A DNA stretch of 64,000 nt from an uncultured Clostridia bacterium. GTDB taxonomy: Bacteria; Bacillota; Clostridia; Christensenellales; CAG-314. A program made the translations under genes and the position numbers. Shown here piece by piece: positions 1 to 50,153 of this stretch. The stretch lies in NCBI GenBank assembly GCA_947625725.1, contig CANQPI010000009.1, forward strand, positions 194 through 64,193, in the 5' to 3' direction. Under the pieces are notes generated by a model. It was not told the DNA's origin and did not search any database. It saw only the letters and a list, made by a program, of their open reading frames with translations. Each line of letters starts with the position of its first letter. The first letter of the stretch is position 1.

Positions 1-3000
1 ATCATATAATTGACGGGTGTGCAACCGTCCTCTGACTTGTCAAACAATATGGACAACAAGCAAATATCTTTTTCTTCCAATTTAATCATTTCGCTGTCGA
101 TAAGGTCGCCCATGGTCAAGTTTGTTGCCAACGTCGTCATCTTGTCGGCGTTCAATTCGTCAATGCGCAGGTTGGACATTTTTTCGTTCAAGCCTTTTAC
201 TCTGGTACAGGGGTGTTCGCCGGGTACGCCGTGTACGTGTTCGCCGAGATCAGTCGTGCCATAGTCTTTACAGTCGTACCACACGTAACCGAAACACTCA
301 AAGGTGTGCATTTCTTCGCCGCTGTGTTCGTTGGGTTTGTCGCATATCAACTGCGCCTCGAAGTAAATGCCGTGTTTAATGTCGTAAATGTACCAATTGC
401 CGTCCTTGTCTTTGAAAACTTCGTCCCGGTGATGTTTGGTGTCCATATCGGTAAACTTGTGTTCCCATTGTGCGGATTGCTCTTGTTCTTTGGCTTGGCG
501 GTCCACTTCTTTGCGTTGGAAGCCCATTGCAACGCCGACTTCGATACCGTCAAGTTCGCCGTTGAGTTCGCCGATCTTTATTGCGCCGAGTTCACGCAGC
601 AGCGGGTTGGAATTGTTATCCAACTCCAACACTTCGCCGAGTTCGGTGTCGTACACGACGGACGTAATGCCTTTGCTGTCGAGTTCGCTTATTTTGAGGT
701 GCGCCATTCTGCCCAGCAAATTGTTTGCGGGAACATAACTCTTGCCCTCCTCGCTCCATTCGCCGTCGTGCGAGTGCGCGTCGGTACATTCTTGATACCA
801 CAACACGATAAAGCACTCCGCGCCGTGCGTGTGGGCAAGTTTTCCGCAGTCCGCTTCCTCGTCGGTAGAGCCGTGGCAGATTGCGGGGTCGTGTTTATGC
901 TCCGTTTTGGTGCAAGTCAGCAACGCCTCGTACCAAACGCCGCCGTCGTTTAGGGCGTATTCCACCGAGCCGTCCGTGTTTTTGGATTTTATCAAGTCGC
1001 TCACGACGTCGGTGGTGTAGTCCGCTTCGAAAACGGGTCTGCGCTTGAATTGCAACAGATTGCCCAGATACATTTGGTCTATCGCTCCGCTCAGTTCGCC
1101 CAGCGGCGTATCGGCAAGGGACGCAAGGGGCGAGGGTATATTCTCGCCCAACACGTCGCGCATAGTAAATGTCTGAATGGTCTTGTCCAGATCGCCCAAC
1201 TCGCTTACCTTTTTGTTGGCGAGTTTTGCCATCATTCCGACGACTTCCGTTCCGTCTTTGCTCCACTCAAAATTGCCCTCAACGCCGTCGCCCTTGGTGT
1301 ATTGCAACAGATCGCCCAGATACATATTGTCAATGGCGGAATCGAGGTCTTTTATTTGCGTATCCTTGATACTTGCAAGCATAGAGGGAACGCTGTCGCC
1401 CAACACGTCCGACAAGGTGAAGGTTTGTATCGTTTCGTTCAGATCGCCCAACTCGCTTACCTTTTTGTTGGCGAGTTTTGCCATCATGCCGTCAACTACC
1501 GAACCGTCCTCTTTGGTCCAAACGTAGTCGCCGTCCGTTCCGTCGCCCTGCGTGTATCCCAACATAACGCCCAAGTACAGGTCGTTTATGGCTTGTTCCA
1601 TTTCGTTGAGTTTGGCGTTTTCCAGACCTTTCAGTTGCGAGGGAATGGCGTCGCCCATCACTTCGCCGAGGGTAAAGTCCATAACGTCCAACGTGCCGAG
1701 GTCCGCTACGGTGTTGTCGGCAAGTTTTGCCATAACTCCCGTGACGGGTTCGCCCGCCGCGTCGTTCCAGCCGTCGTCCGTTTGGGTGTAGCCGAGCATG
1801 TCGCCCACGCGCAATTGTTCGACTGCGCTTGCCAGGTTGCCGACGGTGGTGTCCTTCAACGCGCGCAGTTGCGAGGGAATGTTTTCTTCGCCGCCCATAA
1901 CCTGACTGAGAGTGAGGTCGTTGATAACGCCGTTTATGTCCGTCAGGTCGTTGATTTGTTTGTTGGCAAGCACTTCGGTCAGATCTTTGACCTCGTCGTC
2001 GCCGTTTTCCCACACAAAGCCGTAGCAACCCGCAACGTTGTGTTCGTGTTCTTCCTTGCCGCAGGTGTAGTCGGGCGCGTCGCCGCAATCTTCGGTGTGA
2101 GCGTGTTGCTTGGTGCAGGTTACTTTGCCTTTGTACCAAGTTTTGCCGTCCATTGACAGCCCGAGTACTTCGCCCTCTCCGCTCAAAATTACGTATTTGG
2201 CAACTTTGTCGCCGTCGTCGTGCGGTTCGGTTTTGTACAGCGGCACAACGTCGCCGTCGGGTTTGGCGATCTCCTCCAAAGAGAAACCCATAAGTTGCCC
2301 GATATACATATTGTCTATTCCGCCGTTTATCAGTTCGCCGATAGTCATATCGGCAATGCTTTCAAACACGCCGCTCATTTCCTGCCCCGCCAACAGTTCG
2401 CGCAGGGGGATATTTGTGAGTTTGTCCATCAAGACGTCGCTGTCGCCGCCCATAAGCATGCCCACCGTAATGTCGGCAAGCGCGGCGTAAATACCGCTCG
2501 CGTCCTCGCCGAGTTCCGTTTTCCACTCGTAGCCGAAACAATCGTCGTTGTGAACGTGTTCCTGTTCGTCAATGGTGCAGGTGAGTTTTGCCTTGTACCA
2601 CACGTCGCCGTCGAGTTTGATGTATTCGTCCGAGGCTTTTCTGACGTTTGTTTCGGGTATCGGCGTGTAATCTTCGGGGTTGGTTACTTCCGTGCGCGAA
2701 AGCGCAAGCAACTGTCCCAAATACAGTCCGTCAAAAACTTCGCCGCCCATCAAGTCGCCGATAGTGTAGTCCACAAAGTTTTCCAGCAGACCGCTTATTT
2801 CCACCGAGTCGCCGAGTAGGTCGCGAATGGGGATATTGGTGAACTTGCTCATCAGCGCGTCCTGATCGCCGCTTGTGAGCATACCGACCGTCACGTCGGC
2901 GATCGCGCCGTAGATACCGCTTGCGGCGTTGTCCTCCGCGTCGTACCAGGCAAAGCCGTAGCAATCGATGTCGTGAGTGTGTTCCGTTTTGCCGCAGGTA

Positions 3001-4049
3001 TAGTTGTCGGGGTCGCCGCACTCCGCCGTGTGAGTGTGTTCCTCGATATTGCAGTTAAACCGCGCCTCGAACGCAACCCCGTCGGTATTGACCAACGCGT
3101 AGTCGCCGTCGTCGTTGCGATAGAGAGTCAAATTGTCGTTTTGGTATTCGGTGTTGTCGTAGTCGGCAAGGTCGTTGATCTCCTTGCGGTGCAGACTGAC
3201 AATATCGCCCAAGTACACGCCGTTGATGATGTCGTCGGGATTGAGGTTGCCCTCGTCGTCGATCATGTCGGCAATGGCGTTGTTTCCGATAAAGGCGTTG
3301 AGGTACTGACTGCTGTCGCCGAGCATGGCGACAATGGGCATTTTGCCCAACTCGTCAAACGCGCCGCCCTCTTTGAATTCTCTCAAAATGTTGCCGTTGA
3401 GCCCGCCGCCGATAAGCGCGCCGAGTTTGGCTTGCCCGACAGCCCACATCAAGGCGTTGTCCTCGGTTTGCTCCAACGGGAGCATGCCCATGGCTACTTC
3501 GGCTATACGCACTTCTTCGAAAACGGTAGCAATGCCGTTTTCGCCCATGAGTTCGGCAATGGTGTGAGCGGACAGTTTGTTCATAAGTTCTTCGGAAAAG
3601 AACGGAATGGGATTTCCCTCCTCGTCCGTGCCGTTGTCCACAAACATATTTACAAGCGCGGGAATAACGCTGACTTTGAGTTTGTTTGTGCCGCCGTCCT
3701 CTGCGAACAAATCGAAAATGGGTATCTCCAATATTTCCGAACGCACCTGTTTGCCGCCGAACAATTGGGACGGGTCGATATTGTAGTACTCGCAAAACTG
3801 TCCCAGCGTAAAGTAATTGCCGTTTTCATCCTGCACGCCTACTTTGTCTTTGTACAGTTTGCTGACGGATTCGGCAATTTCGTAGACGGACATATTTGCC
3901 AGATCGCCCAAAAATTCTCCGCCGCCGGGTATGAATTGACCCGTTTTGGGAATAACCGCCAATCCTATCAACGCTCCGGCGATCGCGCCGAAAAAGAATA
4001 TCACGCCGAAAATCGTTCCAAGGAAAAATGCCAAAATTCTTCTGCCCAT
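1..4049 (-). CDS. giant membrane-anchored repeat protein, C-terminus cut by window edge (>1349 aa)
   Basis: Absent from the ORF track because the frame stays open to the left edge. Hand translation from ATG 4049-4047 gives 1349 uninterrupted codons; no other minus ORF in the track uses this frame. RBS AAGAGG lies 7 nt upstream, inside the 3-prime end of the GDPD gene. N-terminus MGRRILAFFLGTIFGVIFFFGAIAGALIGLAVI looks like a single TM anchor. The rest is acidic, with 84-aa tandem repeats and five Cys/His-rich motifs. Confidence 0.8.
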   Translation of the reverse strand, partial: MGRRILAFFLGTIFGVIFFFGAIAGALIGLAVIPKTGQFIPGGGEFLGDLANMSVYEIAESVSKLYKDKVGVQDENGNYFTLGQFCEYYNIDPSQLFGGKQVRSEILEIPIFDLFAEDGGTNKLKVSVIPALVNMFVDNGTDEEGNPIPFFSEELMNKLSAHTIAELMGENGIATVFEEVRIAEVAMGMLPLEQTEDNALMWAVGQAKLGALIGGGLNGNILREFKEGGAFDELGKMPIVAMLGDSSQYLNAFIGNNAIADMIDDEGNLNPDDIINGVYLGDIVSLHRKEINDLADYDNTEYQNDNLTLYRNDDGDYALVNTDGVAFEARFNCNIEEHTHTAECGDPDNYTCGKTEHTHDIDCYGFAWYDAEDNAASGIYGAIADVTVGMLTSGDQDALMSKFTNIPIRDLLGDSVEISGLLENFVDYTIGDLMGGEVFDGLYLGQLLALSRTEVTNPEDYTPIPETNVRKASDEYIKLDGDVWYKAKLTCTIDEQEHVHNDDCFGYEWKTELGEDASGIYAALADITVGMLMGGDSDVLMDKLTNIPLRELLAGQEMSGVFESIADMTIGELINGGIDNMYIGQLMGFSLEEIAKPDGDVVPLYKTEPHDDGDKVAKYVILSGEGEVLGLSMDGKTWYKGKVTCTKQHAHTEDCGDAPDYTCGKEEHEHNVAGCYGFVWENGDDEVKDLTEVLANKQINDLTDINGVINDLTLSQVMGGEENIPSQLRALKDTTVGNLASAVEQLRVGDMLGYTQTDDGWNDAAGEPVTGVMAKLADNTVADLGTLDVMDFTLGEVMGDAIPSQLKGLENAKLNEMEQAINDLYLGVMLGYTQGDGTDGDYVWTKEDGSVVDGMMAKLANKKVSELGDLNETIQTFTLSDVLGDSVPSMLASIKDTQIKDLDSAIDNMYLGDLLQYTKGDGVEGNFEWSKDGTEVVGMMAKLANKKVSELGDLDKTIQTFTMRDVLGENIPSPLASLADTPLGELSGAIDQMYLGNLLQFKRRPVFEADYTTDVVSDLIKSKNTDGSVEYALNDGGVWYEALLTCTKTEHKHDPAICHGSTDEEADCGKLAHTHGAECFIVLWYQECTDAHSHDGEWSEEGKSYVPANNLLGRMAHLKISELDSKGITSVVYDTELGEVLELDNNSNPLLRELGAIKIGELNGELDGIEVGVAMGFQRKEVDRQAKEQEQSAQWEHKFTDMDTKHHRDEVFKDKDGNWYIYDIKHGIYFEAQLICDKPNEHSGEEMHTFECFGYVWYDCKDYGTTDLGEHVHGVPGEHPCTRVKGLNEKMSNLRIDELNADKMTTLATNLTMGDLIDSEMIKLEEKDICLLSILFDKSEDGCTPVNYM

Positions 4050-10033: not shown

Positions 10034-10570
10034 ATGAACATTTGGCATGATATTGCGCGTAGCAGAATAAATGCCGACGACTTTTACGCCGTCATAGAGA
10101 TCACCAAGGGCAGCAAAATGAAATACGAACTTGACAAGGAAACGGGCTTGTTGGTTTTGGACAGGATATTGTACACGTCAACTCACTATCCCGCAAACTA
10201 CGGTTTTATTCCCCGCACGCTTGCCGACGACGGCGACCCTATGGACGTGTTGGTGCTTTGCTCCGAGCCTTTGCTTGCGCGTAGTCTTGTGCGTTGCTAT
10301 CCTATCGGCGTGATAATCATGAACGACAACGGCTCTTGTGACGAAAAAATTATCGCTATACCCTTTACCGATCCCAATTACAACGGTTACAAATCCATTT
10401 CCGATTTGCCCAAGCACATTTTTGACGAAATGCAACACTTTTTCCGCGTGTACAAGGAGTTGGAAAACAAGCCGACCTCCGTATCGGAAGTACACGACGT
10501 CGAGGACGCCAAACGCATAGTGCAAAAGTCCATTGACGATTACATTGCGCAAATTTTGTCCAAGAGATAG
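10034..10570 (+). CDS. ppa: inorganic pyrophosphatase (family I)
   Basis: MNIWHDI...YAVIEITKGSKMKYELDKETG...YPANYGFIP.TL.DDGDP.DVLVL. RBS AAGGAGG precedes the ATG at 10034. Confidence 0.93.
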   Translation: MNIWHDIARSRINADDFYAVIEITKGSKMKYELDKETGLLVLDRILYTSTHYPANYGFIPRTLADDGDPMDVLVLCSEPLLARSLVRCYPIGVIIMNDNGSCDEKIIAIPFTDPNYNGYKSISDLPKHIFDEMQHFFRVYKELENKPTSVSEVHDVEDAKRIVQKSIDDYIAQILSKR

Positions 10571-10610
10571 TTCGCGCTCGGGCATTGCCCGAAAAAAGGC
10601 TTCGCTTCAA

Positions 10611-10660
10611 ACGCCACACATTTAGTAGGGGAACAAAATCCACTTGTGTGGCGTTTTCGT
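10611..10660 (+). terminator. terminator-like hairpin ACGCCACACA...TGTGTGGCGT + TTTTCGTT (module M1)
   Basis: 10-bp stem plus an inner stem, followed by a T-rich tract. It is the first structure after ppa. The same element recurs at about 11065, 11249, 41139 and 41590. Confidence 0.6.
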
Positions 10661-10945
10661 TGCAGATTATTTTTCGGGCAACACCCTCGCGCCCCTGTGA
10701 ACAATGTCGGAACTCTGATTAGAACTTTTTGTTTTGAAATAAAGTTTGCAACTGTTACAACAAAATAATGCTTTCCATTATAATGGGAAACAATTTCGGC
10801 GACTGCATTAAAAGCCTTCTCTTGGGGACGCAAGAGAAGGGGGACCGTCGTCAGACGGTGGATGAGTTTCGACTGTCAAAGCCGACTAAATATTACAATC
10901 TTTGCCTCTTTGGTTTATTCGAAAAAACATTTTTTTGCAAACGTA

Positions 10946-11012
10946 ATTTGAGTTTTGTCCGCTTGTGCGTTGTGTCCACACGCCCTGCGCTCACTCAAAT
11001 CCCTATTTTTTT
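10946..11012 (+). terminator. terminator-like element ATTTGAGT...ACTCAAAT + T7 (module M8)
   Basis: 8-bp closing stem around a GC-rich interior, then CCCTA and seven T. Copies lie at 41019-41085 and 41473-41536. Confidence 0.55.
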
Positions 11013-11286
11013 GACCAAATATAATTGACTCTCGGGCATTGCCCGAAAAAAGGCTTCGCTTCAAACGCCACACATTTAGTAGGGGAACAAAATCCACTTG
11101 TGTGGCGTTTTCGTTGCAGATTATATAGGTATTCGGGTATTCCGTGTCAAACGGCTTCGCACAGCACTTCGGGTGCTTGCACACAAAACGGCTTCACATA
11201 GTGCCTCGGGCATTGCTCGAAAAAAGGCTTCACTTCAAACGCCACACATTTAGTGAGAGAACACAACTCACTTGTGTGGCGTTTTC

Positions 11287-11570
11287 GTTGCAGATTATTT
11301 TTCGAGCAACACCCTCGGCACTTCCTAGAAGCAAGGATAGTGTTTGTTGCAGATTGTTTTGTAGTGCAACACCCTCAGTGCCCCTTTTACAAGGGCAGGT
11401 GTGTTGCAGATTATATAGGTATTCGGGTATTCCGTGTCAAATGGCTTCGTTTCGGGCTACGCCCTCGTTGCAGATTGTTTGTCACGAAACACCCTCATAC
11501 CTTGCTGGAACAAGGTTGAGTTTGCAACACCCTCGCGCCCCTGTGAACAATGTCGGAACTCTGATTGGAC
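11287..11570 (+). repeat. array of four 55-64-nt sub-repeats (GTTGCAGATT..GCAAC-ACCCTC + variable hairpin)
   Basis: GTTGCAGATT starts at 11287, 11346, 11403 and 11467, giving units of 59, 57, 64 and 55 nt. The array ends in the CACCCTCGCGCCCCTGTGAACAATGTCGGAAC module. Confidence 0.7.
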
Positions 11571-11970
11571 ATCTTGTTTCGAGATAATATTGGTAGCGAA
11601 TGAATTGCTTGCCCTTTGAAAGGATGAAGTGGTATTCGCGTTGTATCAAAACATTGCTTTCCACTATAATGGGAAACGCTGTTTTTCTTTTGCACTCACT
11701 AATTACCGGGTCGGAACTCTGATTAGAACGGTTTGTTTTGAAATAAAGTTTGCAACCGACAAATAATTTCCCCCGTCGAAACACTCGGTGGTACTCGCTA
11801 TTTCGCTAAAACGGTGCTTTCCATTATAATGGGAAGCAAAGTCGGCAACGAAGAAGTAACTTCCTCGGCGGCAATGCGCGCGGTGTTTTTGTTCCGTCCC
11901 GACAAAATTTCGCCCCAAACTTCGCCCGAAACGATTTTTACAATTTGCGCGCAAAATAGCCATCTCCGTA

Positions 11971-11999
11971 TTGACTTGCGCGTAGATTTACTATATACT
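11971..11999 (+). promoter_or_regulatory. sigma-A-type promoter for the DUF2974 operon (TTGACT-17-TATACT)
   Basis: Read directly, ~50 nt upstream of the ATG at 12051. Confidence 0.5.
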
Positions 12000-12050
12000 T
12001 GTGGCATATAGTGATCTATGAGATTGCTACGTAAATTGTGGGGTAAAGTT

Positions 12051-13148
12051 ATGAACATCACATCGTACGTAAAGAAAAATCGCGAAACTTTTGCCGACGC
12101 CCCGTTCAACGAGGTGGACAGTCTTGTTCTGTGCGAACTTTCATATCTTCATTACACTCGGGCGTTTGCGGGCGCGCCGCGCAAAACTCTCCGCGACATG
12201 GCAAAGGACGTCAAAACTCACAACAAAGACACCCTTTTGCCGCTGGAAAACATCGGCTTGCTCAAAGCGATCGCAAACAGCCCCCGTTTTGCCGACGTAA
12301 AGGTGGGGTACTTCCGCGAGCGCAACAGCGTCAAGCGCGAAACGCGTTTTGCCGCAATGACCTTCGAACTCGCGCCCGATCTTCACTATGTGGCGTTTCG
12401 TGGCACGGACATCACTCTGTTGGGGTGGAAAGAGGACTTCAACATGGCGATCGTCAAGGCGATCCCCTCTCAAAAGTTGGCGTTGCAATATTTGCAGACC
12501 GTTGCGTCCAAAGTGGACGGCGACCTGATTTTGGGCGGGCACAGCAAGGGCGGCAATCTGGTGGTGTATGCGGGAGTGTACGCCTCGCCCGAGTTGCAGG
12601 ACAGGTTGCTCGCAATATACGACCATGACGGTCCGGGCTTTCGCACGAACATTTTCGGCGATTCCAAATATCTGCGCGTTGCCGACAAGATACGCAAAAC
12701 CGTTCCGCACGATTCCATTATCGGCATGTTGCTCAACGTCATGGAACGCTACGAGGTGGTGGAGAGCAACAGTTTTTCCGTCATGCAACACAACCCGTTC
12801 AGTTGGCAGATAGAGGACAATCATTTCAAAAAACTCCCCGAAACGGCGCGCACGTCCGTTGCAATGGAACAGACCCTTACTACTTGGATATCCGGTTTGG
12901 ATCGCAAAACCACCCAAAAACTTACAAACGCGATATTCGCCGTGTTGTTCGGCAGCGGCGCGACGACCGTTCCGCAACTGCTTCGCCGTCCTATCGGGCG
13001 TTTACGCAACATGAAGCGGGCTTTTGACGCGCTGGACGACGAGAGCAAGTCGTTGCTCACGGGCAACGGCAAATATTTGATGTCTTTGTGGTTTGCCTCG
13101 ATGAAACACGTGTACGGCATAGTCGCGCCCGAGGTCGATCCGCAATGA
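12051..13148 (+). CDS. DUF2974 (Mbeg1-like) alpha/beta-hydrolase-fold protein, paralog 1
   Basis: MNITSYVKKNRETFADAPFNEVDSLVLCELSYL... with GGHSKGGNL (GxSxG), HDGPGF and VPHDSIIG. The family assignment is from memory. I prefer the ATG at 12051 over the track start at 12018. Confidence 0.78.
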   Translation: MNITSYVKKNRETFADAPFNEVDSLVLCELSYLHYTRAFAGAPRKTLRDMAKDVKTHNKDTLLPLENIGLLKAIANSPRFADVKVGYFRERNSVKRETRFAAMTFELAPDLHYVAFRGTDITLLGWKEDFNMAIVKAIPSQKLALQYLQTVASKVDGDLILGGHSKGGNLVVYAGVYASPELQDRLLAIYDHDGPGFRTNIFGDSKYLRVADKIRKTVPHDSIIGMLLNVMERYEVVESNSFSVMQHNPFSWQIEDNHFKKLPETARTSVAMEQTLTTWISGLDRKTTQKLTNAIFAVLFGSGATTVPQLLRRPIGRLRNMKRAFDALDDESKSLLTGNGKYLMSLWFASMKHVYGIVAPEVDPQ

Positions 13149-39122: not shown

Positions 39123-40805
39123 ATGGCTGCTGCTCATACAATCAAAACTCACATCACGCCTTCCGTGATGAAACGCATGTTTATCGCCGGCGGAAAAATG
39201 CTGGAAGTAAACAAAGCGCAAGTAGACGCACTGAACGTCTTTCCCGTTCCCGACGGCGACACGGGAACAAATATGTCTTTGACAATGATGTCCGCCGTCA
39301 AGGAGATCAATTCCGCAAACAGCACGTCTATGTCGGAACTTGCGGAAAAACTCAGCAAAGGCGCGCTTCGCGGTGCGCGCGGCAATTCGGGCGTAATACT
39401 TTCTCAAATTCTCAAAGGTTTTTCAAATATCATAACTCAAAACGACGAGTGCGACGCGCGCACTTTTGCCAAAGGACTGCGCGAGGGCGCGGAACTTGCA
39501 TATCGCGCGGTATCCAAACCCAAGGAAGGCACGATCTTGACGGTCGTTCGTTCCATGGCGGAGGAGGCGATCGACACCGCCAAGCGCAGCGGCGACATTC
39601 AAAAGTTGCTGAACGCTGTGTTGGAAAAGGGCGAAGAAACCCTTGCCAAAACTCCCGATATGTTGGACGTGCTCAAACGCGCGGGCGTGGTGGACAGCGG
39701 CGGTTACGGACTTATCACCCTGTTCAAAGGGTTGATAATGGGCTACCTCGACCAGGAGATCACGGGCGCGGAGGAGTACGCCGAGCCTGAAAGCAACAAC
39801 AAACCCGTATCTATCGATTCGGCTTTCCCCGACGACAGCGAACTCGTAGTGGACTACGAATCTTTGGGCGAGTTGGATTTCGGCTACTGCACGGAGTTTT
39901 TCATCACCAACATAAAAAAGCGCACAACGGTTACGGATATTGACAAATTGAGAGAGTATCTCAACGAGATAGGCAACTCCGTTATATGTATCGGCGACCT
40001 CAATTTGGTAAAGGTGCATGTACATACAAACAACCCCGGCAAAGCGCTCACCAAGGCGCTCACCCTCGGCGAGTTGGACAAGATAAAGATCGAAAACATG
40101 ATGGAGCAAAACAGAAAGTTGCGCGCCCGTTACGAAGCGGAACGCAAGCCTATCGGTTTGCTTGCAGTGTGTTCGGGCGACGGTTTCGCCGCGATTTTCA
40201 AGGATCTTCTCGTCGATCAGGTGATAGAGGGCGGTCAGACAATGAACCCCTCCGCCGAGGACATAGCCTCCGCCGCGCGCAAAATCAACGCGGAAAATAT
40301 CATAATTTTGCCTAACAACAAAAATATCATTTTGTCCGCAGAGCAATCGAGAACGTTGGTGCAAAACCGCAACATCTTTGTGTTGCAAACAAAGGATATT
40401 CCGCAGGGACTTGCGGCGGTACTCAATTTCAGTCCCGACCTCAGCCTGTCCGAAAACCTCGAAAATATGACCGCGGGCTTTGTGGATATCGACGCGGGAC
40501 AAGTTACCTACGCCGTTCGCGACACCGTGATAGACAAGTTCAAGATAAAGAAAGGCGACATTATCGGTTTGGACAAGGGCAGTATCGTCACCAGCGGCAA
40601 GGACGTAGAGGCGGTCACGACCAAGTTGATAGAAGGAATGTTGACCGAGGACAAGGAAGTGGTTACTTTGTACTACGGACAGGACGTTCCCGAAGAAAAA
40701 GCCGAGGCTTTTGCGGAAAAACTGCAAAACAAACACCCCGACATCGAATTTATTCTTCACTACGGCGGTCAACCGTTGTACTACTACGTGCTGAGCGTGG
40801 AGTAA
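39123..40805 (+). CDS. yloV: DAK2 domain fusion protein YloV
   Basis: LNVFPVPDGDTGTNM..T, RGARGNSGVILSQ, 560 aa. Confidence 0.9.
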   Translation: MAAAHTIKTHITPSVMKRMFIAGGKMLEVNKAQVDALNVFPVPDGDTGTNMSLTMMSAVKEINSANSTSMSELAEKLSKGALRGARGNSGVILSQILKGFSNIITQNDECDARTFAKGLREGAELAYRAVSKPKEGTILTVVRSMAEEAIDTAKRSGDIQKLLNAVLEKGEETLAKTPDMLDVLKRAGVVDSGGYGLITLFKGLIMGYLDQEITGAEEYAEPESNNKPVSIDSAFPDDSELVVDYESLGELDFGYCTEFFITNIKKRTTVTDIDKLREYLNEIGNSVICIGDLNLVKVHVHTNNPGKALTKALTLGELDKIKIENMMEQNRKLRARYEAERKPIGLLAVCSGDGFAAIFKDLLVDQVIEGGQTMNPSAEDIASAARKINAENIIILPNNKNIILSAEQSRTLVQNRNIFVLQTKDIPQGLAAVLNFSPDLSLSENLENMTAGFVDIDAGQVTYAVRDTVIDKFKIKKGDIIGLDKGSIVTSGKDVEAVTTKLIEGMLTEDKEVVTLYYGQDVPEEKAEAFAEKLQNKHPDIEFILHYGGQPLYYYVLSVE

Positions 40806-41018
40806 ACCGACCAGGCGCAAGTCGGTTCGGTTGATTACACAACCGACCCCTACGGGGCGCAAGTGCGCCGACTTGGTCGGACTGCTAAGGAAGTCGCTAC
40901 ACGCGCCTTCATTTTCGGGCTCCCACGCAATGCGAGTGTCACTGCGTGGGAGGAGTCGCAACCCCGCCAACCCCCGCAAGGGCTGCAATCTCGGTACACG
41001 CCCGTGATTGCAGGAGGG
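40806..41018 (+). ncRNA. candidate structured RNA: unique GC-rich multi-helix segment leading into repeat locus B
   Basis: Begins right after the yloV stop. Nested helices: CCGACCA(40807-13)/TGGTCGG(40874-80) and GTCGG(40821-25)/CCGAC(40868-72) enclose three hairpins. Further helices: CTCCCACGCA/TGCGTGGGAG (40920-52), CCC-GCAA-GGG (40973-82) and CTGCAATC/GATTGCAG (40983-41014). No ORF. Family unknown. Confidence 0.35.
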
Positions 41019-41085
41019 ATTTGAGTTTTGTCCGCTTGTGCGTTGTATCCACACGCCCAGCGCTCACTCAAATCTCTATTTTTTT
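41019..41085 (+). terminator. M8 terminator-like element, locus B copy 1
   Basis: ATTTGAGT...ACTCAAAT followed by CTCTA and T7. Confidence 0.55.
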
Positions 41086-41472
41086 GACCAGATGCAATTG
41101 GCGCTCGGGTATCCCCTGCAAAAAGGCTTCACTTCAAACGCCACACATTTAGTGAGAGAACGCAACTCACTTGTGTGGCGTTTTTGTTGCAGATTATTTT
41201 GCAGGGGACACCCTCGCTCCCCTGTGAATAAGGTCGGAACTTTGATTGGAATTGTTTGTTTTGAAATAAAGTTTGCAACTGTTACAACAAAACAATGCTT
41301 TCCATTATAATGGGAAACATAGTTGACAACTGCATTAAAAGCCTTCTCTTGGGGACGCAAGAGAAGGGGGACCGTCGCAAGACGGTGGATGAGTTTCGAC
41401 TGTCAAAGCCGTCTAGATATTACAATTATTGCCTCTTGGGTTTATTTGATAAAACAGTTTTTTGCAGACGTG

Positions 41473-41536
41473 ATTTGAGTTTTCGCTTGTGCACTGTGTC
41501 CACGCGCCCTGCGCTCACTCAAATCTCTATTTTTTT
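41473..41536 (+). terminator. M8 terminator-like element, locus B copy 2
   Basis: ATTTGAGT...ACTCAAAT followed by T7. The interior has a 3-nt deletion and substitutions relative to the other copies. Confidence 0.55.
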
Positions 41537-41773
41537 GACCAGATGCAATTGGTACTCGGGAATCCCCTGCAAAAAGGCTTCACTTCAAACGCCACACATT
41601 TAGTGAGGGAACACAACTCACTTGTGTGGCGTTTTTGTTGCAGATTATATAGGTATTCGGGTATTCCGTGTCAAACGGCTTCACACAGCACTTTGGGTGC
41701 TTGCACACAAAACGGCTTCACATAGTGCCTCGGGCATTGCTCGAAAAAAGGCTTCGCTTCGGGCTACGCCCTC

Positions 41774-41993
41774 GTTGCAGATTATTTTTCGAGCAACACC
41801 CTCGGCACTCCCTTGAAGCAAGGATAATGCTTGTTGCAGATTGTTTTGTTGTACAACACCCTCAGTGCCCCTTTTACAAGGGCAAGTGTGTTGTAGATTG
41901 TTTGTTACGAAACACCCTCATACCTCGGTGGAACAAGGTTGAGTTTGCAACACCCTTGCGCTTGTGTGAAAAAGGTCGGAACTATGATTGGAC
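41774..41993 (+). repeat. array of three 55-59-nt sub-repeats (locus B version)
   Basis: GTTGCAGATT at 41774 and 41833, GTTGTAGATT at 41890. The 64-nt third unit of locus A is absent here. Confidence 0.7.
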
Positions 41994-42341
41994 AACTTGT
42001 ACCGTAACAAGGTTGCTAACTGTGAGAGGGCTTACCCTTTGAGGACATGAAGTGGTATTTGCAACTAACAAAACAATGCTTTCCATTATAATGGGAAACA
42101 ACGTCGGCGACTGCATTAAAAGCCTTCTCTTGGGGACGCAAGAGAAGGGGGACCGTCGTCAGACGGTGGATGAGTTTCGACTGTCAAAGCCGACTAAATA
42201 TTACGATCATTGCCTCTTGCGTTTATTTGATAAAGTTGTGCAATACCCTCGCACCCGTGTGAACAAGGTCGTACATTTTTGAAACTGCGCTCGCATATCC
42301 CTCGCAAAGTTGAATTTTACATTGATTTTACATATCGGACG

Positions 42342-42746
42342 TTAAGCGTTGCCTAACTTTTTTTCCGTTTTTCTCTTTTTCGGAGCGACAAGAGCGTAAC
42401 TGTCGTCAATGAGTTGCGACAGCAACGTCATATCCACCGTACCGTCCAGCAAAACGCCTATCCAATGCAGTTTGTTGAGGTGGTAGCAGGGCACAAAACC
42501 CTTTTGGTCAAGCAACACCTCGCGTGCAAACGGGTCGCACTTGATGTCCAAAATGTCTACAACGCCCTCGCCGTCCAGCCCGAGCCTTTTACGCGGCACG
42601 TTCATGATAATGCCGTACCATTTGCGCGTGTCGGCGCGCCTCAGCACGGCGTAATTGGGGACGTCCGCCCACATGTATTCCGCCTCAGTACCGTATTGAT
42701 TTGACGCATAGTTCAGCACGTCTTGTCTTGTAGCCCCGTTTGTCAT
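42342..42746 (-). CDS. MmcQ/YjbR family DNA-binding protein
   Basis: 134 aa; ...YAVLRRADTRKWYGIIMNVPRKRLGL......VDILDIKCDP....LL...G..P.YH.NK.HWI.VLLDG. Family assignment from memory. RBS GGAG. Confidence 0.8.
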   Translation of the reverse strand: MTNGATRQDVLNYASNQYGTEAEYMWADVPNYAVLRRADTRKWYGIIMNVPRKRLGLDGEGVVDILDIKCDPFAREVLLDQKGFVPCYHLNKLHWIGVLLDGTVDMTLLSQLIDDSYALVAPKKRKTEKKLGNA

Positions 42747-43815: not shown

Positions 43816-43902
43816 TGGTGCCGCTGACCGGGTTCGAACCGGTACAGTATTGCTACCGAGGGATTTTAAGTCCCTTGCGTCTGCCTGTTTCGCCACAGCG
43901 GC
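43816..43902 (-). tRNA. tRNA-Leu (anticodon UAA), CCA encoded
   Basis: Hand-folded cloverleaf: acceptor GCCGCTG/CAGCGGC, anticodon arm AGGGA-CTTAAAA-TCCCT, long variable arm with a GCAA loop, T arm ACCGG-TTCGAAC-CCGGT, 3-prime ACCA. Confidence 0.93.
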
Positions 43903-43911
43903 ATATATTTC

Positions 43912-43941
43912 AACTGCGAAGCACATTTCGGCTTCGCAGTT
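43912..43941 (-). other. perfect 11-bp hairpin in the tRNA-Cys/tRNA-Leu spacer
   Basis: AACTGCGAAGC-N8-GCTTCGCAGTT with no clear U-run. Possibly a processing or stability element. Confidence 0.45.
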
Positions 43942-43946
43942 GTGTT

Positions 43947-44020
43947 TGGAGGCACCACCCAGACTCGGACTGGGGGTGGAGCTTTTGCAGAGCTCTGCCT
44001 TACCACTTGGCTATGGTGCC
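43947..44020 (-). tRNA. tRNA-Cys (anticodon GCA), CCA encoded, atypical T-loop
   Basis: Acceptor GGCACCA/TGGTGCC, discriminator U, anticodon arm GAGCT-CTGCAAA-AGCTC, T arm CCCAG-TCCGAGT-CTGGG. The T-loop reads TCCGA instead of the usual TTCGA. Confidence 0.85.
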
Positions 44021-48249: not shown

Positions 48250-48297
48250 GTCGGGTAATTAGCGCAAAAAATTTTTCAAAAAATTTTCGAATATGTC

Positions 48298-48326
48298 TTG
48301 AAATGTAGACTTAATTATTATATAAT
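48298..48326 (+). promoter_or_regulatory. sigma-A-type promoter TTGAAA-17-TATAAT
   Basis: Read directly, ~65 nt upstream of the ATG at 48391. Confidence 0.55.
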
Positions 48327-48390
48327 AGTATCGTATGTAAAGTTTGTCGTTTTCAACAGAACAAACTTTGCCAATTTCAAGGAGGACTTT

Positions 48391-49593
48391 ATGAAAGCAA
48401 ATAGAATCTTGATCGCTCTCGTTGCGGTTGTTTTGACGCTTGTCATGGTATTTGCCGTGGCGTGCAACAACGTCGCCGACAGACAGTCTGCAACGCTTGC
48501 CGAAACAGGCGTTACGCAAGAGGCGGCGCGCCCCAACAAACAGGCTGAAACCGCAATTACCGACCCTCACGAGGGACACACTTTGGAGTGGCGTCATGAC
48601 CAAACCGAACATTGGCGTTACTGCACGGATTGTCAAACGGTGGTTATGAGTACTTACGAAACTCACCAATTCGGCGATAGCGGCGATACCTGCACAAAGT
48701 GCGGCGCACCTCGTCACACGCAACATCAAATGACGGTGTGGAGATACGACGCTACTCAACATTGGCACGGGTGCTACATCTGCGGCGAATCGGATACCGA
48801 CAGAGCCGACCACGAGTTTGTCAACGGCTTGTGCGAGTGCGGCGCAAGAGAAAAGGAAGAATATGTTCCCGAAGAACCCGATCCCAACGCGGATTCTCCC
48901 TACATTTTGGTAGGAATGTTCGGCGGCAGAGATCGCTGGGCGGATCTGAACGGTCTTGGTTTGGCGGAGAGTAACGGCACTTGGAGCATTACGGTAGACT
49001 TCAAGGTCGGCGATCAATTCAAACTCAAAAAGAGAAACGTCATTTGGGACGATTGGCAAATCGGATACAGCGCAAACAAAAACATCACCAAAGAATCCGA
49101 CGTTGAAGGCGCGGTAGACAAAGTTTTGTTCGGTACAAATACCGACGGAAACTTCGTCGTCAAGTACAACTGCACGGTAACTATTTCGCACAATGGCGAC
49201 GCTTCTTCGGTCAGCATCCATGTTTTGGCGGCGGAAGGCGTACCCGAAAATCCCACCGAGTACAGATACACGTTCCACCTTTATGCACCTTCTTGGAGCG
49301 GCGCATACATTCACTGCTGGGGACCCATCGGCACGGGTAGTTGGGACAACAAGCCCTCTATGACAAGCGAAGGCAACGGTTGGTACGTTTGGACCTACAT
49401 CACCTATGAAGAACTCGGCTCCGCCGAACAAGGCTTTGTTATGTGCAACCCCTCCAATGTGGACGGCGAGCGCGTCACAATGGGCGGCACGGACGCAGGA
49501 CACGGACCGGGCGTTGTACTCAAAGAGAATATGTACTTCAACGCACTCAAAGGCAACAATCAATACGACAGCATGGAAGAAGCGCTTGCCTGA
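48391..49593 (+). CDS. surface lipoprotein with His/Cys-rich repeats and two putative carbohydrate-binding-like beta modules
   Basis: RBS AAGGAGG. Signal peptide MKANRILIALVAVVLTLVMVFAVAC (lipobox). It is followed by HTLEWRHDQTEHWRYCTDC, CTKCG and HQMTVWRYDATQHWHGCYICG motifs. Two W/G-rich modules come next (…NGTWSITVDFKVGDQFKLK…, …GSWDNKPSMTSEGNGWYVWTY…). Confidence 0.7.
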   Translation: MKANRILIALVAVVLTLVMVFAVACNNVADRQSATLAETGVTQEAARPNKQAETAITDPHEGHTLEWRHDQTEHWRYCTDCQTVVMSTYETHQFGDSGDTCTKCGAPRHTQHQMTVWRYDATQHWHGCYICGESDTDRADHEFVNGLCECGAREKEEYVPEEPDPNADSPYILVGMFGGRDRWADLNGLGLAESNGTWSITVDFKVGDQFKLKKRNVIWDDWQIGYSANKNITKESDVEGAVDKVLFGTNTDGNFVVKYNCTVTISHNGDASSVSIHVLAAEGVPENPTEYRYTFHLYAPSWSGAYIHCWGPIGTGSWDNKPSMTSEGNGWYVWTYITYEELGSAEQGFVMCNPSNVDGERVTMGGTDAGHGPGVVLKENMYFNALKGNNQYDSMEEALA

Positions 49594-49614
49594 GCGATCC
49601 TATTTGTATCAATT

Positions 49615-49646
49615 GAGAGCGCCGAATTTTTCGGCGCTCTCTTTTT
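49615..49646 (+). terminator. intrinsic terminator (GAGAGCGCCGAA-TTT-TTCGGCGCTCTC + T5)
   Basis: 12-bp perfect stem followed by a T-run. Confidence 0.75.
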
Positions 49647-49657
49647 ACGCTCTACGT

Positions 49658-49830
49658 GAAGTGTGGTGCAAAATGCCCTCACATTTCGGCAGAACTAGGT
49701 TGAGTTTGCAACGTCCATGCGTTTACAACAAAACTTGCTCACCGTAATGGAAAACAGAGTCGGCAACTAGACCGTATATTTTGTTGCTAGTTCAAATTAC
49801 ATTCTTTGCTCGCTCAAATCTCTATTTAAT
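49658..49830 (+). repeat. decayed fragment of the locus A/B repeat family
   Basis: Shares AGGTTGAGTTTGCAAC (49697-49712) exactly with 11513-28 and 41936-51. Also has a degenerate version of ACAACAAAAC..TGCT..TAATGGAAAAC..GTCGGCAAC and the GCTCGCTCAAATCTCTATTT tail. Confidence 0.5.
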
Positions 49831-50153
49831 TGTAATTTTATTTATAAATTGGGTTAATAAATGCAGTATATGCCCTTTCTTTGCGACTCGGTTGGACGCT
49901 CATTTTGTCGCAAAGTAAGTTTGAAACAGCGGTTTTTCCGTTTCATATACCGACGCACGCCGACGTTTATTACAGAACAAATATTTTATATAAAATTTTT
50001 TGGGTATAACCCTGTTTTCGATAGCAATTTACGTGGATATATCGTGAGATTTTAGTTGCGCAAAGCATTGCAAACCGAGCGATTTTTTGATATACTTAAA
50101 AATGTCGTTATGTCACAAAAGAATTTTGCTACCGTATGCAAGGAGGCGTTGAA

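Follow-up and report, generated by a model that had tools for sequence, protein, structure and literature searches.

The window analysed here is a 64,000-nucleotide stretch of the genome of an uncultured Clostridia bacterium, in which two intergenic spacers are occupied by mosaics of shuffled and nested modules, each 1.45-1.5 kb long. Intergenic mosaic 1 (10571-12017, + strand) extends from the stop codon of ppa (TAG, 10568-10570) to the start of an Mbeg1-like gene (12018), and intergenic mosaic 2 (40806-42330, + strand) extends from a FakA-like/Dak2 gene (stop at 40805) to a convergent YjbR gene (42342-42746, - strand). The same module set is present in both mosaics in a different order. The neighbouring genes were identified with Pfam as ordinary housekeeping genes, and no transposase or recombinase was found near either mosaic. 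A degenerate remnant of mosaic modules (49655-49835, + strand; repeat families D9 and D15) follows an ordinary terminator (49612-49650) and lies upstream of the formate-tetrahydrofolate ligase gene. That terminator comes after open frames of ~430 codons that overlap on both strands (48259-49593), neither with a Pfam match. Elsewhere in the window, two tRNA genes (43819-44020, - strand) are located ~1.5 kb downstream of mosaic 2, and a 1349-codon open frame on the - strand (3-4049), which has 252-nt tandem repeats (1046-2771) and no Pfam match, is also covered by four shorter + strand ORFs.

Within the mosaics a recurring unit of 95-140 nt was recognized, with the order 5′ arm, GGCTTCRC, variable hairpin, GTTGCAGATT and 3′ arm. 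The core GTTGCAGATT occurs in ten exact copies in the window, all on the + strand, and allowing one mismatch raised the count to 17, compared with 5.5±2.6 in shuffled sequence. A covariance model (R1) built from 53 units of other genomes matched seven units in the window, of which five are complete and two truncated; all seven lie on the + strand within the two mosaics.

Mosaic 1 contains six exact cores in addition to other repeated modules. Its first unit (10574-10692, + strand; model match 10569-10698, 75 bits, E 2.9e-18) is complete and consists of a 5′ arm (10574-10597), GGCTTCGC (10598-10605), an inner hairpin designated M1 (10609-10656), GTTGCAGATT (10659-10668) and a 3′ arm (10669-10692). 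A truncated unit (11031-11148, + strand; 27.1 bits) comprises the 5′ arm, M1 and the core, with the start of the next unit (TATAGGTATTCGGGTATTCC...) standing in place of the 3′ arm. An outer unit (11177-11378, + strand), recognized from its sequence and predicted fold, carries a whole unit at the position of its inner hairpin; in the predicted fold, TTGCACACAAAAC-GGCTTCAC (11177-11197) pairs with GTTGCAGATT-GTTTTGTAGTGCAA (11346-11369). Within these bounds lies a complete unit (11197-11326, + strand; 69.9 bits) with the stem GCTCGAAAAA/TTTTTCGAGC and an M1-type inner hairpin. Another complete unit (11414-11506, + strand; 87.9 bits) has a short inner hairpin (GGGC-TAC-GCCC) and the stem CGTGTCAAA/TTTGTCACG, with one mismatch.

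In mosaic 2, complete units were found at 41096-41225 (+ strand; 82.3 bits; stem CCCCTGCAAAA/TTTTGCAGGGG, M1-type inner hairpin) and 41721-41813 (+ strand; 92.4 bits; stem GCTCGAAAAA/TTTTTCGAGC, short inner hairpin). The truncated unit between them (41547-41679, + strand; 28.7 bits) has the 5′ arm CCCCTGCAAAAA, M1 and the core, and no matching 3′ arm. In both truncated copies, at 11031-11148 and 41547-41679, the 5′ side thus occurs without a matching 3′ side and GTTGCAGATTA runs into the beginning of another unit. One unit per mosaic carries a complete unit in its inner-hairpin position. A separate module with the near-palindrome TGCTTTCCATTATAATGGGAAAC is present in five copies (10762-10803, 11648-11689, 11808-11849, 41289-41330 and 42070-42111), three of which then carry two hairpins, CCTTCTCTTG...CAAGAGAAGG and GACCGTC-GTCA/GCAA-GACGGT.

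The unit was predicted to fold as a single rod-shaped hairpin in which a variable block X pairs with X′. The consensus of the 5′ part was GTCGC(A)TCGGGTATTC followed by X and AAAA(C/A), that of the centre was GGCTTCRC-TTCG, a variable inner hairpin and CTC-GTTGCAGATT, and that of the 3′ part was (G/A)TTTT, X′ and GAACACCCTCGC (in another version of the consensus, GAACACCCTCGCTCC). The outer ends read GTCGC(A)TCGGG at one side and CCCTCGCTCC at the other, and the arms form imperfect inverted repeats of ~30 nt, the terminal-inverted-repeat character of a MITE. From the outside inwards, the rod is composed of the distal stem, the X/X′ block, an A4/T4 block, an internal loop, the segment GC/GC-T·T/T·T-CG/CG and the inner hairpin. 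Two features interrupt the distal stem, a TC/TC loop that is fixed and a position that is mostly A·C, and the tandem T·T lies below the inner hairpin, flanked by GC/GC and CG/CG pairs, with the internal loop beneath. The loop letters were invariant over 14 species-level genomes, and the most conserved letters of the family were the central GGCTTCRC and GTTGCAGATT, not the ends of the arms. The inner hairpins ranged from 11 to ~55 nt; their stems were unrelated between species, yet all paired, and the long ones shared a recurrent TTTAG(T). The fold of the 130 nt at 10571-10700 had a predicted energy of -55.2 kcal/mol (z = -5.2 relative to shuffles). Both strands of the unit folded well below shuffles, and the complementary strand of the first window unit reached -62.6 kcal/mol, compared with the -55.2 kcal/mol of the GTTGCAGATT strand.

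A first-pass annotation of the window had proposed that the segments on either side of M1 and the core form a long-range stem, both sides of which change together between copies. Direct reading of the window confirmed the pairing of GCCCGAAAAAA (10587-10597) with TTTTTCGGGC (10670-10679), and the pairings of CCCCTGCAAAAA (41113-41124) with TTTTGCAGGGG (41197-41207) and of the second GCTCGAAAAAA (41739-41749) with TTTTTCGAGC (41785-41794) were likewise present. The first GCTCGAAAAAA also pairs with its TTTTTCGAGC (11298-11307), and here only the coordinate of the 5′ side was in error by 10, the segment lying at 11215-11225 rather than 11225-11235. An upstream TCGGGC (10578-10583), placed so that it could compete for GCCCGA, was found as described, as were all of the differences confined to hairpin loops (GTCA and GCAA; TTCGG and TTTGG).

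The proposed stem was examined in a larger alignment of 53 short units from other genomes, which were aligned with MAFFT with no selection on pairing. RNAalifold predicted the stem from this alignment, with both-sided changes in 12 of 19 pairs. In a 28-pair model of the same units, 85.5% of the cells were paired, as opposed to 74.3±0.6% with shuffled partners (0 of 500 shuffles). Cells changed on both sides numbered 173, compared with 70.6±6.0 in the shuffles (0 of 500), and such changes were distributed over 17 pairs; sliding the partners by 1-3 columns left only 40-51% of the cells paired. Arm complementarity scored 9.88 of 12 for a unit's own partners and 8.44±0.12 for shuffled partners. 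The X and X′ blocks varied widely yet stayed complementary (GGTGC/GCACC, CCACGC/GCGTGG, CCCCTGT/ACAGGGG, GCGCTC/GAGtCGC and CCCGA/TCGGG). These data confirm that the outer long-range stem claimed from the window copies is real and maintained by compensatory change, and the same holds for the inner hairpin.

The distribution of the unit was determined by scanning one genome per prokaryotic species with the pattern GTTGCAGATTRTTTN{6,10}ACACCCTC. At least 99 stretches matched, and among those listed nearly all belonged to metagenome-assembled genomes (MAGs) of uncultured Clostridia, mostly from rabbit gut, with a few from other sources. Related loci were fetched as 8-kb tiles around the repeats, and 236 GTTGCAGATT cores were harvested from them. 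Model R1 identified 113 units beyond the window in 689 kb of these tiles, which derived from 14 species-level MAGs; one MAG alone supplied at least 21 tiles with the repeat, and arrays reached up to eight cores. Multi-copy dispersal over 14 species-level genomes is thus observed, within a clade of uncultured Clostridia of the gut to which the family is restricted. Absences in this set are undersampled, because the related genomes are all fragmented MAGs that were fetched because the repeat was present. Two contigs of a MAG labelled Corallococcus sp. (JAMPAB01, loci L053 and L086) contained genuine units and had 44-48% G+C, unlike a myxobacterial genome, and are probably mis-binned Clostridia contigs.

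The family gave no match in viral contigs or, by blastn, in phage and plasmid collections, and scans of JGI metagenomes returned no match to an M1-specific pattern and one match to the family pattern, so that the subfamily of the window gained no copies. A search of Rfam at E<=1 over window positions 10500-12100 returned nothing relevant. Literature searches with the core sequence retrieved only unrelated primers, and those for repeats at stop codons in Firmicutes retrieved nothing specific. The family therefore appears to be undescribed.

Six other assemblies with an identical pyrophosphatase all ended 30-125 nt past the ppa stop codon, and assembly breaks at this point are the behaviour expected of a repeat. 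Among loci of the window species, L004 differed from L003 and L005 in that the first unit after ppa continued as the truncated type (window 11113 onward), as though the 454 nt separating two M1 copies were missing. This difference reflects either strain variation through direct-repeat recombination or an assembly path through the repeat.

Comparison with a close relative (L090, Lapin-002 bin65; LepA 93% and Ppa 86% identical to the window proteins) revealed turnover of the units. In L090 the ppa spacer is 263 nt long and contains an ordinary terminator and no repeat, followed by the same downstream gene, whereas the window spacer is filled. At the 3′ end of lepA the situation is reversed: L090 has a three-unit array starting from the lepA stop codon, and the 70-nt spacer of the window is empty. 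At a third orthologous site, the content of the arrays differed among three species. Units are thus gained and lost between close relatives. With crude ORF calls, 23 arrays in tandem gene pairs were co-oriented with the genes and 12 were antisense, 13 lay between convergent genes and 11 between divergent genes; spurious ORFs that extend through the repeats add noise to these orientation statistics.

The first-pass annotation had gone further and interpreted the locus as an attenuator or riboswitch expression platform, in which a helix between TCGGGC and GCCCGA and the long-range stem, being mutually exclusive, would set whether M1 forms as a terminator. In the window copies either helix can be drawn, M1 is followed there by TTTTCGTT, and some kind of local hairpin was predicted in 62 of 101 5′ arms folded alone. 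Across the family, however, covariation of the upstream helix was only marginal, with 63.2% of cells paired versus 60.0±1.3% in shuffles (5 of 500) and 16 versus 12 both-sided cells. When 10571-10700 is folded at minimum energy, the partner of TCGGG is CCCTCG, which extends the outer stem, and not GCCCGA. Enforcing the TCGGGC/GCCCGA helix gave -46.9 kcal/mol versus -55.2 kcal/mol, a cost of 8.3 kcal/mol, and left M1 unchanged. Since M1 is identical in both states, the alternative helices do not decide whether it forms.

The T-run behind M1 is peculiar to the window variant. There, either GTTTTCGTT or GTTTTTGTT follows the hairpin, with three of the T paired to AAA; the run is not conserved, the family usually having CTCGTTGC at this position. 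No conserved aptamer-like or sensor domain was recognized, and neither the window nor 17 related loci (123 kb) gave an Rfam match that reached the gathering score. The attenuator reading thus fails on the start of units at stop codons, 3′ of genes, on their arrangement in arrays and in either orientation, on the absence of any unit from the orthologous ppa spacer of the close relative, on an M1 untouched by either helix, and on the marginal upstream helix. It is contradicted on its defining logic, and we regard it as extremely improbable. A riboswitch-like picture also arises when hairpin repeats are copied as units, and clean compensatory changes together with two alternative helices should be read with caution, as on their own they do not indicate a riboswitch.

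The reported stem is probably the principal stem of one unit in an intergenic repeat family of the REPIN or BOX kind, modular in build, present in many copies and folding into hairpins. Under this explanation, units would be copied whole, truncated, joined at GTTGCAGATTA or nested in one another's inner-hairpin position, giving rise to mosaics of 1.5 kb. The arms would change together because a copy must keep them complementary to persist, and each variant would then be propagated as a unit, as in REPINs. We infer that spread would occur at the DNA level, through a folded single strand and an enzyme that recognizes it and whose gene lies elsewhere in the genome, and transcribed copies may secondarily serve as 3′-end hairpins.

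Comparable repeats have been described. The REP/REPIN sequences of Pseudomonas and Enterobacteria, which are mobilized by RAYT transposases, are likewise short and extragenic, each genome having tens to hundreds of them, and two inverted arms around a spacer form one long hairpin in which compensatory changes are common (PMC3116915). They also have an alternative local fold of the arms, the 'clover', and share with the family here the occurrence of higher-order clusters and vertical inheritance within a lineage (PMC3116915). The two differ in that there is no sequence similarity, the host here is a member of the Clostridia, no GTAG-type head was seen on the arms in the 53-unit alignment, and no RAYT gene was found in the available 8-kb tiles. 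In addition, REPINs are reported to be placed randomly in extragenic space, whereas the units here abut stop codons.

The BOX elements of Streptococcus pneumoniae (boxA-boxB(n)-boxC) are a modular interspersed repeat of the Firmicutes whose end modules pair, whose variable number of inner modules barely alters the fold, and which lie mostly downstream of genes, vary in length between strains and show no clear target duplication (PMC3049150). All of these features are shared by the family described here. The sequences are unrelated, however, and the present family has many more module types and true nesting of whole units; the ends of BOX resemble an insertion sequence (ISSpn2), and no such IS is known for this family. 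In the intergenic mosaic elements of Neisseria, shuffled modules alternate with a short junction sequence that is repeated. The Correia elements are hairpin-forming, can be transcribed and are cut by RNase III; they have defined terminal inverted repeats and are inserted at TA with duplication of the TA. Intergenic mosaics of shuffled modules and hairpin-forming units are common to these elements and the present family, which belongs to a different phylum and has different sequences, and for whose units a TA duplication could not be shown.

Several observations weigh against the interpretation as a mobile repeat. No full-length IS with unit-like ends was found in the fetched loci, and ORF clustering and inspection revealed no transposase-like ORF or recombinase recurring next to arrays or between inverted arrays; apart from housekeeping genes orthologous between loci, the clusters comprised nothing but an AAA-type ATPase-like ORF and the like. 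Inspection of nine loci defined no consistent target-site duplication, a suggestive 8-nt match being seen in L064 alone. The orientation data derive from crude ORF calling. The precise and oriented placement of units at stop codons could, moreover, instead reflect a selected role at the RNA level.

Among the first units of 80 arrays, 22 started directly at a stop codon (offset 0 or -1 nt) that ends a co-oriented ORF with 100 or more codons, and a few more started at +2 or +3; against a uniform spread over 55 nt, the peak has a probability of 6e-14. No such peak was present for the stop codons of convergent ORFs at the 3′ side of the units. These findings support the main rival explanation, in which the units would act in cis as RNA modules within 3′ untranslated regions. 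Transcribed together with the upstream gene, the rod-shaped hairpin would protect mRNA 3′ ends and, through cutting by a double-strand-specific RNase, could uncouple neighbouring genes; the M1 variant of the window may aid termination, and the spread of the units would be secondary. The excess of co-oriented over antisense arrays in tandem gene pairs and the constancy of the loop letters among the 14 species-level genomes point in the same direction, as does locus L064, where a single unit lies between a stop codon and the ribosome-binding site of the next gene. The terminator behind ppa in L090 is missing in the window, where M1 with its T-run is the sole terminator-like hairpin, and effects of a 3′-RNA type are known for other repeats (PMC3049150).

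An RNA-level role does not account equally well for the remaining data. About one third of the arrays are antisense to genes or lie between divergent genes, arrays of up to eight cores and truncated units are hard to explain functionally, and units turn over between close relatives. In 85 of 107 units, RNA parameters gave the GTTGCAGATT strand, which is the one co-oriented with the gene, a less stable fold than the complementary strand. On that same strand A·C mismatches outnumbered G·U pairs by 122 (plus one conserved column) to 56, the opposite of what selection on an RNA would predict, although these counts are not independent events because a few inherited columns dominate and the copies share ancestry. 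Comparison of G·U and A·C counts was consequently dropped as a pointer to an RNA strand, the A·C excess stemming largely from those few columns. No RNA signature specific to one strand is evident in these counts, in keeping with the repeat interpretation. A role as a 3′ untranslated module, which is not exclusive of that interpretation, is the main rival, though an unlikely one.

The consistency of the strand difference, with the complementary strand folding better in 93 of 107 units under DNA parameters, is a feature also of integron attC sites. Like these, the units form an imperfect rod-shaped hairpin of similar size (95-140 nt), in which unpaired positions are conserved and the tip varies strongly, and the 5′ end of a unit abuts the stop codon of the upstream gene, just as an attC site begins at or near the preceding gene's stop. 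The unit could on this basis be a recombination site that is recognized by its structure, with folded single-stranded DNA as the substrate, the fixed mismatches marking the recombined strand and the inner hairpin providing the variable terminal structure. The outer ends nevertheless lack R and L box consensus sequences (RYYYAAC/GTTRRRY), the neighbours are housekeeping genes (LepA, Ppa, FakA-like, FTHFS and similar) and not cassette ORFs, and units stand back to back with no ORF between them. Furthermore, no integrase was found nearby in the fetched loci, and instead of a single co-oriented array the units are dispersed over many loci in both orientations. An attC-like site is thus a distant rival and very unlikely, both as a description of the unit and in the roles it would assign to the mismatches and the inner hairpin.

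The repeat explanation, which we continue to prefer, has to accommodate the composition of the stop-codon junction as well. The stop codons at the 22 junctions were TAG in 13 cases, TAA in 8 and TGA in 1, compared with background frequencies of 25%, 37% and 38%, respectively. TA, as part of TAG or TAA, immediately preceded 21 of the 22 stop-abutting units, which recalls the TA at which Correia elements insert, and the junction took the form TA(G/A)|GTCGC with TGA almost excluded (for example in L024, L017, L092, L029, L049 and L090, and at 10568-10574 of the window). In both pairs of empty and filled orthologous sites the end of the protein was unchanged, with TGA at the empty site and TAG at the filled one. 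We tentatively consider, as a possibility with the odds against it, that the unit is not just a passive REP-like repeat but an oriented element placed exactly at stop codons. The placement would then be due either to an insertion mechanism, so far undescribed, with the stop codon as the sequence it targets or rebuilds, or to selection for a widespread post-stop RNA or DNA structure whose invariant loop letters are read by a dedicated protein. If the exact, TAG/TAA-biased junction reflects a mechanism, bacterial repeats would have a mode of target choice that is new, and the junction would offer a handle for finding the responsible enzyme. The family in any case offers a rich natural alignment for studying the persistence of hairpin repeats; it is abundant in the rabbit and rodent gut Clostridia clade, where it breaks short-read assemblies.

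Other modules were observed in the neighbourhood of the units. A module of the form GTC|GTCACC...GGTGAC-CTGATGAG...CGAAAC is present 5′ of some GTTGCAGATT cores (L009, L011, L018, L081, L084, L087, L101 and L104, all from Lapin-012 bin87), and a weaker form occurs in the window at 10855-10885. The CTGATGAG...CGAAAC part resembles the core of a hammerhead ribozyme, but this identity was rejected, as stems II and III failed to form on inspection and Rfam returned nothing. The module CCCCGACC(N)CCCACCCCTATTCGCGGAGACACAG recurs 3′ of units in several species, and the motif CCGACCA(C/A)A is often found upstream of units, in both cases including L008, L024, L090, L092, L105 and others. At L075 (3200-3330), an antisense unit stops 5 nt short of the next gene's start codon, and the likely ribosome-binding site (GAGGAA) lies within the complement of the unit's 5′ arm.
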